This document shows positions 47,497-51,881 of a stretch of DNA of 64,000 nucleotides, one piece after another. The DNA comes from Acidobacteriota bacterium (GTDB taxonomy: Bacteria > Actinomycetota > Acidimicrobiia > Acidimicrobiales > Ilumatobacteraceae). Location of the stretch: positions 3,223-67,222 of the forward strand of contig JAGWXX010000001.1 of NCBI GenBank assembly GCA_018969685.1, in the 5' to 3' direction. Each line of letters opens with the position of its first letter. Position 1 is the first letter of the stretch. The translations under genes were made by a program, and so were the position numbers. Under the pieces are notes generated by a model that made no database searches, was not told the origin of the DNA, and was given only the letters and a program-made list of their open reading frames with translations.

Positions 47497-48720
47497 TTAC
47501 TTCAGCGTCACGAGGTAGGCGACCAGTTTCTCGATGTCCGACTCCGTCAGCGCGAGATACGGCATGCCGCGGTACTTGCCGCCCGTTCCTGCGAGCAGCG
47601 CGGGGTTCGCGTACATCGGCTTCATCTCGGGCGCGTTGCGGAGCCAGCCGCGCAGGTCGGTCTGGTTCAGGCAGTCCTCCGAGACGCCGGCCAGGTACTT
47701 CGACCCGAAGTCGGCGGGTGACGCCTCCCACACGTCCCTGCGGCACGCGGGGGTGAGGAGGTCGAACATCGCGCCGGCAAACGTGTTGCGCGACATCAGC
47801 TTGGAGAGGTTCGGCGCGGCGCCCGACACGACGTTCTCGTCGGGCGCGGCGATCGCCGGCGACCCGTCGGCGCGCTCGAGGCCGTTGACCTGGTGGCATC
47901 GCACGCACTGGTTGAGGAACACCGCCTCGCCTTCCTTCGCGAGGCCGTCGGCGGGCGACTCGTACGGTGCCAGCTGCTGCGCCACCCAGGCGGCGAAGTC
48001 CTCCTTGCTGAGCGCCACCGCCTCCATCCGCATGTTCGCGTGCGACAGGCCGCAGAACTCGGTGCACTGCCCCGCGTAGATGCCGGGCTCGTCGGCCTCG
48101 ATGCGATTGAGGTGGACGCGGCCCGGGACGGCGTCGCGCTTGCCGTTCAGGCGGGGGATCCAGTACGAGTGGATCACGTCGCGACTGGTCTGGCGGAGCA
48201 TGACCTTCGTGCCGACGGGGATGACCAGCTGACCGGAGGTGATGATCGGCTGGGTGATGCCGAACTCCTCCTGGACCGGATAGTCGTACTCCCACCACCA
48301 CTGCTGGCCGGTGACGTTGATGACCATCTCGGTGTCGTCCGTCTTGGAGAGGTCGAACACCGTGCGCACCGTGAAGACGCCGATCACCGCGAGGATCAGC
48401 GCCGGGATGATCGTCAGCGTGATCTCCAGCACGGGCTTGCCGTGCGTCTGCTTCGGGATCGCCTGGCCTCGGTCGCGGAAGCGGAAGATCGCCCAACCCA
48501 CTGCGGCGGCGACGATCAGGCCGACGATGCCTGCCACGGCGAAGACCGGCCGCTGCAGGTCGTCGATCATCTGCGCGTTCGGGCCGGCCGGATCCCACGT
48601 GTCCTGCGGCGCGTTGCTGGCGCAGCCCGCGAGCGCGACCAGCGCGAGGGCCGGAAGCACTCGACGACGCATGGACCCGAGCCTATTGACGGCGGTCGGA
48701 CGCGGACGGGCGGAGGTCAT
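47497..48720 (-). CDS. ctaC: Cytochrome c oxidase subunit II with fused C-terminal cytochrome c domain (caa3 type)
   Basis: ATG 48720 (ATGA overlap with upstream gene); alternative ATG 48672. Lipobox LAGC, CuA site HSYWIP...CTEFCGLSHANM and haem c motif CVRCH. Confidence 0.9.
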   Translation of the reverse strand: MTSARPRPTAVNRLGSMRRRVLPALALVALAGCASNAPQDTWDPAGPNAQMIDDLQRPVFAVAGIVGLIVAAAVGWAIFRFRDRGQAIPKQTHGKPVLEITLTIIPALILAVIGVFTVRTVFDLSKTDDTEMVINVTGQQWWWEYDYPVQEEFGITQPIITSGQLVIPVGTKVMLRQTSRDVIHSYWIPRLNGKRDAVPGRVHLNRIEADEPGIYAGQCTEFCGLSHANMRMEAVALSKEDFAAWVAQQLAPYESPADGLAKEGEAVFLNQCVRCHQVNGLERADGSPAIAAPDENVVSGAAPNLSKLMSRNTFAGAMFDLLTPACRRDVWEASPADFGSKYLAGVSEDCLNQTDLRGWLRNAPEMKPMYANPALLAGTGGKYRGMPYLALTESDIEKLVAYLVTLK

Positions 48721-49826
48721 GGAACGATCACCTCGATCGACTGCCCCTCGATGCCGGCGACCTCGAGCACGTAGGCACCGGGTTCGAGGGATGGCTTGGG
48801 GATGGTCAGCGTGAGCAGCTGCTCTGCGCCGCTGGGAATGAGCTGCGTGCACTGCTCGACTTCCTCCACGACGCCCTCGGCGACCGGCGCCGTGCCCAGT
48901 CGTGCGACGAGGCGGAAGTCGCCCTCCGTCTTGTTGCGGAAGATGATCGACGACGGGTTCGAGCGGGGAATCGTGATGCGGTCGGTCTCTGCGGGGTTGC
49001 CCTGGACCCGCGCCACGAGCGTGCCTTCGACGAACTCCACCGTCGCAATGACGGCGCTTCGCGACGACACGCCGAGCAACGCGTGCTTGTCGCCGTACTT
49101 GTCCTTCTCGGGGCCGCACGTGCGGTGGGTGTAGTGGCCCTCGGACTTCGCCTCCACCAGCTCCGCCCGGATTCCGGACGACGCGCCGCCCACGCCGCCA
49201 GCGACGAGCCCGACGGCGCCGACCGCGCAGACGCCGGCAACCAGCGACCGCTTCAAGCCCGGCCGCACCGCGAAGAGGACTCCGCCCACCAGCACCAGCG
49301 ACGCGAACACGATGAACAAGACGGCTCCCGCGCTCTTGCTGACGGCGAGCATGATCCGCGAGAACGAGAGGATCACCACGGCAGACCCGATCGTGGCGAG
49401 CACCGGGAACTCGAGCGGCTGCATGATGCGCCCGCGGAGGTCGGCGTTGTGGGCCGGATCCGCCGAGGCGCGGTCGCTCCACGACTGGACGGTCCATTCG
49501 ACGAACGCCGCCACGACGACGACGACGCCGAGGATCAGCACCGCGGGACGGGTGATCGTGCCCACGAGCACCAGCGCAACACCCGCCGCGGCCATGAACG
49601 GCCACATGCCCGGGGAGGGAACGGCCGACGCCGCGGGCGACGACTCGTCGGGCTCGCCGTCGCGCGACCAGAGGGCGAGCCATGCGGCGAGCGCCACCGC
49701 CGGCACGAATCCGAACAGTGCCGTGGCGCCGATCGACGACGGGTTCACCAGCACCATGAACACCGCGAACGACACGGCTCCCAGCGCCGACAACCCGATG
49801 AAGAACTTGGAACCGGTGGTGAACAT
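48717..49826 (-). CDS. Membrane protein with subunit-IV-like hairpin and C-terminal cupredoxin-like beta domain lacking Cu ligands (hypothetical)
   Basis: 369 aa. Several TM helices including SPGMWPFMAAAGVALVLVG. C-terminal RITIPRSNPSSIIFRNKTEGDF...EPGAYVLEV beta-rich domain. Translationally coupled to ctaC. Confidence 0.5.
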   Translation of the reverse strand: MFTTGSKFFIGLSALGAVSFAVFMVLVNPSSIGATALFGFVPAVALAAWLALWSRDGEPDESSPAASAVPSPGMWPFMAAAGVALVLVGTITRPAVLILGVVVVVAAFVEWTVQSWSDRASADPAHNADLRGRIMQPLEFPVLATIGSAVVILSFSRIMLAVSKSAGAVLFIVFASLVLVGGVLFAVRPGLKRSLVAGVCAVGAVGLVAGGVGGASSGIRAELVEAKSEGHYTHRTCGPEKDKYGDKHALLGVSSRSAVIATVEFVEGTLVARVQGNPAETDRITIPRSNPSSIIFRNKTEGDFRLVARLGTAPVAEGVVEEVEQCTQLIPSGAEQLLTLTIPKPSLEPGAYVLEVAGIEGQSIEVIVP

Positions 49827-50445: not shown

Positions 50446-51881
50446 GCTGCCTCCCCCTTGCTCCGCACCACGGCGGCGACGGCGGTCAGCGCGGCGAGGG
50501 CCACGAGGAGGTGCCCGGCCGCGGACGCGCCGTTGAGCAGCGCCACGGCACCGGACGAGTCGTAGTCGACCGAGTCCCACGACGGCTGGTCCATGAACCC
50601 CGCGACGTACATCGGCAGCGACGACAGCACGGTGCCGAGGAAGCCGACGCCCGTCACGACCACCGCGGGACGGACCGCGATACGACGGCCACCCTGCAGA
50701 CCGACCACCCCGCCCCAGGCGGCGAGCGCGAGTCCGTACGCCACGTAGAGGCCGGTGCCTTCGTCGAGGACGGTGCCGCCGACGCCGACCGCCTCGACGG
50801 TCGACAGAGCGTGGCCGACCATGCCCGTCAGCACCATGCCCATGCCCAGGAAGGCCGGCGCAAATCCTGCGCCCAGCTGGCGCACGCCGGAACGCACGGC
50901 GAGCAGCGCCGCCGCCAGCACGGCAAGCACGCCGAGGACCGGCAGGAGGTTGTAGAACGCCCACGGCACGAGGTTGCGGACGGTCTCGCCCGCCGACCCC
51001 TCCGCGTCGAGCTGCACCACCGTCTGCGTGACCGACCCGACCACCGCAGCCGCGACGAGCGCGATGCCCACCTGGAGCGCGGCGCCGAGCGCGCGGGGCG
51101 CACCGGGCGAACGGGGGAGGATGCCGGCGAGGATGCCCGCACCGAGGGCCGCGACGACGTACGACTGCGGCGCACCGAGCGCCCAGCCGAGGTGCCCGGC
51201 AGCGCCCTCCGCGCCGCCGAACGCGAACTGTCCGTACCTGAGGTCGACCGCGACGTAGACCAGCGTGCCGAGCAGCACCGGCAGCGACAGCAGCATCGCA
51301 AAGGACGACACGAAGGCGCCCCACGCAGCGGGCTGTGCGTCGGCAAGGGCTAGGTCCGGGCGACGGGACGCGAAGACCGTGGTGAAGACCGAGAGCGCAA
51401 CGGCGAGCAGGCCGACGACGACGGCGCCCATGCCGAGGAGGTGGAGGTCGAGCATCGACGCCTGCTCCGCGCCGGGACGTCCGTCCACCACGGCCGCCCA
51501 CGCCACCATGACGAGTCCCGCGAGCCACAGCCAGCCGCCGAACGATGCGGTGCGCGCGAGCGCGACGGTTCGGGAGCCGACGAGGCGCGGCACGACGAGC
51601 ACCGCCGTGCCGAGCAGCAGCGGCGCGGCGAACCCGTACAGCGCGGTGCTGCGCAGCAGCGATGCGAACTGGGCGGTCGCCTCGTCCTCGAACACGCGGC
51701 GCGTCGAGTCGATGCGCTCGAGGGAGTACAGGGCCGCGACGACGGCATAGACCAGCAGCCAGATTCCCGCCGGCACGCCGACCACGGCGGCGATCGTCCG
51801 GGAATCGGTCGACACCAACGGCGCGACTGCCGTTGCGCGGTGCGGTGCGGCGGTCGCCGCGGGGGGCTGAACTGCGGTCAT
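50442..51881 (-). CDS. Haem-copper oxidase subunit I-like 12-TM paralogue lacking all canonical His ligands
   Basis: 479 aa. Collinear by-eye similarity to CtaD ([48 protein letters not shown]) with every ligand His substituted. Confidence 0.6.
   Translation of the reverse strand: [479 protein letters not shown]

Follow-up and report, generated by a model that had tools for sequence, protein, structure and literature searches.

The window analysed here is a 64,000-nucleotide stretch (positions 3,223 to 67,222 of contig JAGWXX010000001.1) from a metagenome-assembled genome (MAG) of a freshwater actinobacterium (Ilumatobacteraceae). Within the operon of a caa3-type cytochrome oxidase on its minus strand, it carries three additional genes, here called X1, X3 and X2, which very probably constitute a conserved set of oxidase paralogues devoid of cofactors. 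The gene order is ctaB-X1-X3-X2-ctaC-ctaD-ctaE-ctaF-ctaG. X1 (50442..51881) encodes a 479-residue paralogue of oxidase subunit I that lacks the ligands of haem a, haem a3 and CuB as well as the residues of the D- and K-channels. X3 (49831..50445) encodes a 204-residue paralogue of subunit III, and X2 (48717..49826) a 369-residue protein that is modelled by AlphaFold2 (AF2) with seven transmembrane (TM) helices and a C-terminal beta domain. The X1 stop and the X3 start share an ATGA at 50442-50445, the X2 stop and the ctaC start share another at 48717-48720, and X3 and X2 are separated by 4 nt. These positions, overlaps and spacing had been reported in an initial annotation of the window and can be read directly from the sequence; the peptides quoted there are all present, and gene calls confirm that the cassette is inserted between ctaB and ctaC of the ctaCDEFG operon.

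Three oxidase paralogues and their ligand positions

Profile searches give significant matches for both X1 and X3. X1 matches Pfam COX1 end to end, with an E-value of 2.2e-18 and 66.8 bits against a gathering score of 34.8, over profile positions 5-434 of 436. Profile-profile alignment with hhalign, using 58 X1 and 43 CtaD sequences, joins the two families with a probability of 100 and an E-value of 5.9e-48 across 462 columns (residues 1-479 against 1-519), so that the collinearity with CtaD first proposed by eye holds over the whole protein. In the PDB, X1 matches the CtaD of mycobacteria and corynebacteria best. Its score against the NCBIfam model TIGR02891 is 76.6 bits, far below the equivalog cutoff of 670.75. 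X1 ends shortly after TM helix 12 and is missing the C-terminal CtaF-like hairpin of CtaD, and longer X1 relatives retain a C-terminal DPW..LEW motif.

The six invariant histidines of haem-copper oxidases, two for the low-spin haem, one for the high-spin haem and three for CuB, are all replaced in the X1 of the window, and the alignment with CtaD restores none of them. The helix II haem a ligand is L76, followed by R77, and within GHPEVY the CuB histidine has become A237 and the channel glutamate Q239, in line with the substitutions named by the initial annotation. At two further motifs the loss of histidine stands and the replacing residues differ. The HH pair of WAHHMF, previously read as Gln-Thr, aligns with V289/Q290, and the residues behind the earlier reading, Q286/T287, likewise include no histidine; the two helix X histidines of AHFHY correspond to T376 and L378, instead of Tyr and Leu. 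No column of the X1 family, across its 58 members, holds an invariant His, Cys or Met. The cross-linked tyrosine and the D- and K-channel residues that would place X1 among proteins with a proton pathway are also absent. By its sequence, X1 is homologous to oxidase subunit I yet is no functional member of that family, and it is predicted to be a protein that cannot reduce O2 or NO.

X3 is recognized by Pfam COX3 (E 9.2e-10, 39.2 bits against a gathering score of 23.8) and aligns with CtaE in hhalign with a probability of 97.9 and an E-value of 4.8e-13. The NCBIfam model aa3_CtaE_Actin (NF050119) also finds it, at E 1e-11 and 45.3 bits against a cutoff of 190. The assignment of the 204-residue product as a subunit III paralogue is upheld by these results, and judged by its profile scores X3 is a homologue of subunit III and no orthologue of it.

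X2 combines a CtaF-like domain of four TM helices, three further TM helices and an auracyanin-type cupredoxin without type-1 copper ligands. Its first part (residues 1-115, 49482..49826) resembles actinobacterial subunit IV: at positions 6-119, the X2-family profile finds the mycobacterial and corynebacterial CtaF chains of the PDB 9wcx_m (E 6.5e-5), 7q21_F (E 2.6e-4) and 6adq_H (E 2.7e-3). Six of 19 diverse X2 relatives match PF12270 (Cyt_c_ox_IV), the best at 2.8e-7, and the X2 of the window matches no Pfam family, PF12270 included, and no NCBIfam family. Within this domain, the hairpin SPGMWPF...EW (residues 69-114, 49485-49622) aligns with the C-terminal hairpin of CtaD with a probability of 94.9 and an E-value of 4.7e-8. 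The second hairpin conserved in CtaF reads P-S-x-W-P ... E/G-W. The resemblance to subunit IV, originally noticed for the hairpin, appears to extend in this way to the whole domain of four TM helices. Comparisons of the X2 N-terminus with Bacillus-type CtaF, CtaE and X3 in hhalign are negative.

The C-terminal domain of X2 (residues ~255-369, 48720..49064) has a cupredoxin fold, as the initial annotation had suggested. The AF2 model reaches a predicted local distance difference test (pLDDT) score of 83-90 over most of residues 260-369, and Foldseek places its beta domain closest to 4hcf (E 4e-5), with amicyanin, auracyanin and oxidase subunit II chains, including CyoA, among the other matches. 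Over positions 261-346 the family profile matches auracyanin 6kol with an E-value of 5.9e-10. Compared with the cupredoxin of CtaC, the domain shows no similarity (hhalign probability 0.2), and for this reason a derivation of X2 from subunit II, considered as a candidate, was dropped. Pfam COX2 is not matched by X2 or by the relatives scanned, and X2 shares with subunit II only an architecture of two TM helices followed by an outer cupredoxin. The former label "II/IV-like" holds for subunit II in architecture alone, with no detectable sequence relation to CtaC.

The canonical copper site of this domain is gone: F304 occupies the position of the first type-1 copper histidine, and the C-x2-H-x3-M loop is deleted. 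The earlier claim that no copper-binding set exists is correct for these type-1 ligands and fails for candidate ligands in general, since H231, C237 and C326 are invariant in a 30-sequence alignment of X2 and its closer relatives, at positions off the type-1 site. H231 and C237 (49116-49136) lie just upstream of the cupredoxin domain, and C237 and C326 probably form a disulfide. A cytoplasmic motif, EW..Q.W......D...N...R.R...P.E.P, is highly conserved among 19 representatives spanning the 849 clusters of the wider X2 family described below. All 338 X2 homologues are annotated as "hypothetical", and neither the window protein nor any closer relative scanned belongs to a Pfam family.

Conservation, selection and the graded family

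A scan of one genome per GTDB species places an X1 homologue in 59 species of Ilumatobacteraceae and other Acidimicrobiales. The order ctaB-X1-X3-X2-ctaC-ctaD-ctaE-ctaF-ctaG is kept in every usable locus of these species-level genomes, and the cassette stands between ctaB and ctaC in each of about 80 additional metagenome loci whose flanks are long enough. The order is unchanged on metagenome contigs whose X1 is 73%, 43% and 32% identical, and where related loci extend far enough, X1 nearly always follows ctaB. Spacing is also maintained: X1 and X3 overlap by 4 or 1 nt, X3 and X2 are 4-15 nt apart, and X2 and ctaC overlap by 4 nt in many loci. No cassette without a downstream ctaC was seen in the sampled loci.

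Three loci of an Ilumatobacter-like clade, labelled as two Ilumatobacter sp. and one uncultured Acidimicrobiaceae, contain an insertion of about 1.4 kb between ctaB and X1 (L043 1553-2960, L046 5888-7288, L047 6424-7811). In L046 it encodes a Gig2-like protein (PF07350, E 1.6e-87), and a similar open reading frame is present in the other two.

The three genes are clearly under purifying selection, about 2-4 times more relaxed than that on ctaD. Ratios of nonsynonymous to synonymous substitution (dN/dS; Nei-Gojobori method, ten genome pairs) are 0.05-0.35 for X1, 0.02-0.33 for X3 and 0.06-0.41 for X2, against 0.02-0.15 for ctaD. The 59 species-level genomes yield about 57 usable loci, in which reading frames are intact and constant in length. 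The two excluded loci, L062 and L065, come from long-read-derived MAGs and have frameshift-fragmented matches in all cta genes, beyond the X genes, so that assembly error is likelier than pseudogenization. That X1, X3 and X2 might be copies of ctaD, ctaE and a ctaF/cupredoxin gene that are decaying and unexpressed could be argued from their evolution at 2-4 times the rate of the genuine subunits and from the loss of every catalytic residue. The intact frames, the low dN/dS values (0.02-0.41 overall), the synteny in 59 species, the conserved translational coupling and a phylogeny congruent with ctaD down to about 30% identity refute it, leaving decay with a negligible probability.

Neighbour joining with CtaD as the root recovers the X1 sequences as a monophyletic family, with a haem-retaining clade at the base and a topology that parallels the CtaD tree, which indicates that the cassette has co-descended with the operon. 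A separate origin, with the cassette of an actinobacterial aa3 type and the neighbouring oxidase of a Bacillus-like caa3 type, is unsupported: X1-like proteins and genuine CtaD rank the PDB oxidases almost identically.

The wider family is graded in its cofactor sites. Searching 1.84 billion representative proteins with the X2 profile recovers 849 clusters at 50% identity. Distant relatives share the membrane domain, and in some of them the blue-copper site of a C-terminal cupredoxin is intact, as H...CDVHPxxM (P0209, P0233, P0240, P0251 and P0280), or takes the variant form CDVPGH...M (P0257). These proteins match Pfam Cupredoxin_1 and Copper-bind, and IMG names P0233 "plastocyanin". Loci of the haem-retaining sister clade read ctaB - COX1-like - COX3-like - X2-like - ctaC-ctaD-ctaE-ctaF-ctaG, with a divergent ctaA ahead of ctaB in some. 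Their COX1-like protein, found mostly in Acidimicrobiales MAGs, is annotated as "cbb3-type / cytochrome c oxidase subunit I". A search for such proteins at E <= 1e-10 gave 500 clusters at 90% identity, the top 120 of which were examined; lower ranks may include genuine CtaD.

In 131 sequences of this sister clade, both low-spin haem ligands are largely kept, with histidine at the helix II position in 113 and at the helix X position in 119. The binuclear centre is lost: the helix VI CuB histidine is Val, Leu or Ile, the helix VII HH pair is Gln followed by Val, Asp or Leu, and the haem a3 histidine is Gln in 116/131. Pairing within loci follows the same gradient. An intact type-1 copper X2 occurs only beside a haem-retaining X1 (4/4 loci), seven loci combine a haem-retaining X1 with a copper-less X2, and a ligand-less X1 is always accompanied by a copper-less X2 (77/77). 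A basal clade with haem ligands, sometimes with blue copper and never with a binuclear centre, points to stepwise loss. The simplest history suggested by these sequences is one ancient duplication, after which the binuclear centre would have been lost first, in all members, then the blue copper of X2, and the low-spin haem of X1 last. The window cassette is the fully cofactor-less end state of this series and no isolated oddity.

The ligand-less clade also gained residues at the emptied haem site. Arg or Lys occurs one residue past the lost helix II histidine in 75/89 sequences and Glu four residues before the lost helix X histidine in 66/89; both are missing in the haem-retaining clade. The pair is a candidate salt bridge that may replace the His-Fe-His strut between helices II and X.

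Because its relatives look redox-active, with bis-His haem ligands and an auracyanin-type H...C-x2-H-x3-M site, the cassette might retain a cryptic redox or metal function. Electrons or metals would pass to caa3 through the H231/C237/C326 site of X2 or through a cofactor bound by Glu, Gln or Arg in X1. The invariance of those three residues among closer X2 relatives fits such a role, as does a histidine at position 289, near the former CuB site, in 34 of 58 X1 sequences. That histidine is ruled out as a retained ligand in the window, where X1 has valine; the missing invariant His, Cys or Met column in the X1 family also counts against a bound cofactor. For two invariant cysteines in an exported domain of an actinobacterium, a disulfide is the simplest reading, and the pair is missing in many X2-family members. 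Taken together, the evidence makes a cryptic function improbable.

According to a second proposal, the oxidase scaffold would now serve another purpose, as a channel, transporter or sensor (of protons or ions, for example), and would merely be co-regulated with respiration. X1 has strongly conserved polar and charged residues within the membrane (E55/R56, R/K77, Q286 and E374), X2 has its conserved cytoplasmic motif, and an acidic residue, Asp or Glu, is kept at the D-channel mouth in 98 of the 131 haem-retaining relatives. The channel residues are gone from the clade of the window: the mouth Asp is T105 in the window itself and Ser or Ala across the clade, the Asn positions are mostly Ala or Thr, and the K-channel Lys is Val, Pro or Leu. 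Furthermore, a structural salt bridge is the simpler explanation of the Arg/Lys-Glu pair, and the cassette is never found apart from ctaC-ctaG in the sampled loci. An autonomous membrane function of this kind appears, from the conserved residues, to have a low probability.

The surrounding caa3 operon

The genuine caa3 oxidase encoded in the window is complete (ctaCDEFG). Subunit II, encoded by ctaC (47497..48720, minus strand, as are all genes of the operon), has a CuA motif and a fused cytochrome c domain with a CxxCH haem c site, matches Pfam COX2, COX2_TM and Cytochrom_C, and scores 190 bits against the NCBIfam CoxB cutoff of 147.7. Subunit I, the 659-residue product of ctaD (45502..47481), contains all ligand motifs (FTMH, GHPEVY, WAHHMF and AHFHY), with 511.8 bits against Pfam COX1 and 681.4 bits against CtaD_CoxA (TIGR02891), above the cutoff of 670.75. 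Subunit III (ctaE, 44913..45509; Pfam COX3, 79.5 bits) and a Bacillus-type subunit IV (ctaF, 44608..44907; COX4_pro, E 2e-11) follow, and the operon ends with the assembly factor gene ctaG (43698..44597; Caa3_CtaG, E 3e-43). The C-terminal ~115 residues of CtaD (45502-45900) form a two-helix hairpin like that of actinobacterial subunit IV, with a sub-threshold PF12270 match (E 7.5e-5), and the Bacillus-type ctaF is present in the operon besides this CtaF-like hairpin.

Upstream of the cassette lies ctaB (51940..52881), which encodes a 313-residue haem O synthase (Pfam UbiA, E 7e-59). The 58-nt spacer between ctaB and X1 (51882..51939) contains a terminator-like match, a weak G+C-rich hairpin followed by a T-rich tail (51920-51902 on the minus strand), with the tail reading TTGTTAGTGT. 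This hairpin could attenuate read-through from ctaB. Terminator-like matches in a scan of 43400-53400 numbered 5 against a shuffled expectation of 3.4 +/- 1.8, which is not above chance, and no promoter-like sites were found in the same interval. The gene ctaA is absent beside ctaB (52882-53300) and, by tblastn, from the whole 64-kb window. It stands divergently beside ctaB in eight loci of the haem-ligand-retaining clade (for example L069 1105-2064), one of the eight having the helix II histidine only. A few kilobases from the caa3 operon, at ~39180-40070 on the plus strand, the C-terminal part of a long open reading frame resembles, by eye, a CcdA/DsbD-type thiol-disulfide transporter (LAAVNPCGFVLLP); such transporters serve cytochrome c biogenesis.

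The X proteins of the window are identical to NCBI MBU6200424.1, MBU6200423.1 and MBU6200422.1, from an 80-kb MAG contig labelled "Acidobacteria bacterium". This label looks wrong, because all homologous loci belong to Ilumatobacteraceae or other Acidimicrobiales.

Possible function and significance

The favoured explanation is that X1, X3 and X2 are an old, vertically inherited duplicate of the structural core of an A-family haem-copper oxidase, a duplicate that has here lost every redox site. The three proteins would assemble into an oxidase-shaped, cofactor-free membrane complex, in which the CtaF-like hairpin, present in cis in CtaD and missing from X1, may come in trans from X2. This complex would be produced together with caa3 from one translationally coupled operon and might serve it as a non-catalytic scaffold, as one half of a pseudo-dimer or as a supercomplex adaptor. 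The persistence of the genes past the loss of their cofactors argues for a selected function that is independent of cofactors, and a non-redox structural partnership with caa3 is the tentative assignment drawn from the sequences, with a likelihood somewhat short of even.

Several points weigh against this partnership. The AF2 model of X1, built from a nine-sequence alignment, has a pLDDT of 41.9 and about 12 long helices and is useful for the helix count alone. Rate covariation among the nine operon genes, statistically weak with 23 taxa, gives no link between the X genes and CtaC, CtaD or CtaE, and pairs X1 with ctaB instead. The H231/C237/C326 set of X2 could form a functional metal site in place of a disulfide. 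The caa3 oxidases of Bacillus and Thermus are not known to need such a partner, and membership of the operon fits an assembly role equally well.

In such an assembly role, the cassette would act as a transient template or chaperone of caa3 biogenesis outside the mature enzyme. It might hold CtaC, CtaE and CtaF, or nascent CtaD, during the insertion of haem, with ctaB adjacent, and of copper. This idea suits the position of the cassette, which has ctaB, for haem O synthase, on one side and ctaC on the other and shares its operon with a terminal assembly factor gene, ctaG. In the same weak covariation data X1 varies most closely with ctaB (r = 0.74), much as ctaD does with ctaG (r = 0.72). The invariant histidine and two cysteines on the outer face of X2 are reminiscent of Sco-type copper sites, which are Cys2His. 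Against these stand an X1 without any histidine to hold haem and an outer domain without cysteine in 36 of 139 X2-family members, so that a copper-chaperone site is no trait of the family. The tight translational coupling points to production in stoichiometric, not catalytic, amounts, and no chaperone is known that is a complete multi-subunit copy of its client. On these sequence features an assembly device seems unlikely.

Structurally, the cassette is closest to the A-family oxidases, the Bacillus-type caa3 enzymes and the aa3 enzymes of Mycobacterium and Corynebacterium (PDB 6adq, 7q21). X1 and X3 are homologous in sequence to CtaD and CtaE, as the N-terminal domain of X2 probably is to actinobacterial CtaF, and both helix count and collinearity match in X1. 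The differences are the missing ligands of haem a, haem a3 and CuB, the missing context of the cross-linked tyrosine, the lost D- and K-channel residues and the absence of a CuA subunit. Auracyanin and other tethered blue copper proteins (PDB 6kol, 2aan) provide the best sequence-profile match for the outer domain of the X2 family, whose distant members have a complete His-Cys-His-Met site. Unlike the auracyanin type, which has a single helix or a lipid anchor, the X2 of the window is anchored by seven TM helices that include the CtaF-like module. The core 1 and core 2 proteins of mitochondrial bc1, related to the MPP peptidase, are catalytically dead structural subunits. They offer a conceptual parallel of an enzyme fold kept under selection as architecture after catalysis was lost; the cassette differs in copying a whole multi-subunit set (I, III and IV with a cupredoxin), and its role in a complex is putative.

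A membrane-anchored oxidase cupredoxin without copper ligands, as in X2, has a precedent in subunit II of the quinol oxidase of Escherichia coli, CyoA. The cupredoxin of X2 instead belongs to the auracyanin/Cupredoxin_1 type, forms one chain with a CtaF-like domain and has no sequence similarity to COX2. In a recent survey of the superfamily, gNOR is also described with a CuA-less cupredoxin subunit, and the new nitric oxide reductase (NOR) families all retain the binuclear site (PMC11214002). In both CyoA- and gNOR-containing enzymes subunit I stays fully active. The survey makes no mention of members that lack the binuclear centre or are ligand-less (PMC11214002).

The cassette appears to be undescribed and widely misannotated. 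A description of it was not found in the open-access full-text literature, where absence is no proof, and no curated family covers it; NCBIfam gives only sub-threshold matches for X1 and X3 and none for X2. These results agree with the expectation that it is not an already characterized subunit family. The cassette adds a new variant without catalysis to the haem-copper oxidase superfamily, secure in its identity and conjectural in its function. Annotation pipelines label X1 homologues "cbb3-type / cytochrome c oxidase subunit I" and X3-type proteins "subunit 3", which is a functional misannotation. As a consequence, a second oxidase, one that cannot exist, will be added to metabolic reconstructions of Acidimicrobiales, among them the freshwater acIV lineage (Ilumatobacteraceae).

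The six-His haem and copper site is the defining feature of haem-copper oxidases. A multi-subunit copy without the binuclear centre, and here without any cofactor, that selection maintains inside an oxidase operon is surprising to specialists and has no match in recent surveys of the superfamily (PMC11214002). The graded series offers a natural experiment in the conversion of a redox enzyme into a structural protein, in whose last stage a candidate salt bridge replaces a haem strut. The lineage concerned, acIV, is abundant in freshwater. The cassette is present in MAGs placed in the genus Ilumatobacter, and since this genus has cultured species, the hypothesis becomes directly testable if cultured strains carry it too.

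A broader and more doubtful reading joins these observations into an unrecognized branch of the haem-copper oxidase superfamily, leading from a novel type of respiratory electron-transfer module, encoded next to caa3 in basal members, to a ghost oxidase in Ilumatobacteraceae that would be an obligatory half of a caa3 supercomplex. If this is true, the whole X1-X3-X2 family abandoned O2 chemistry early. Its basal members would hold one low-spin haem in a subunit I scaffold, together with a tethered auracyanin-like blue-copper domain, and are proposed to dock on caa3. No earlier case would then be known in which a respiratory enzyme core was kept in its entirety as a pseudoenzyme.

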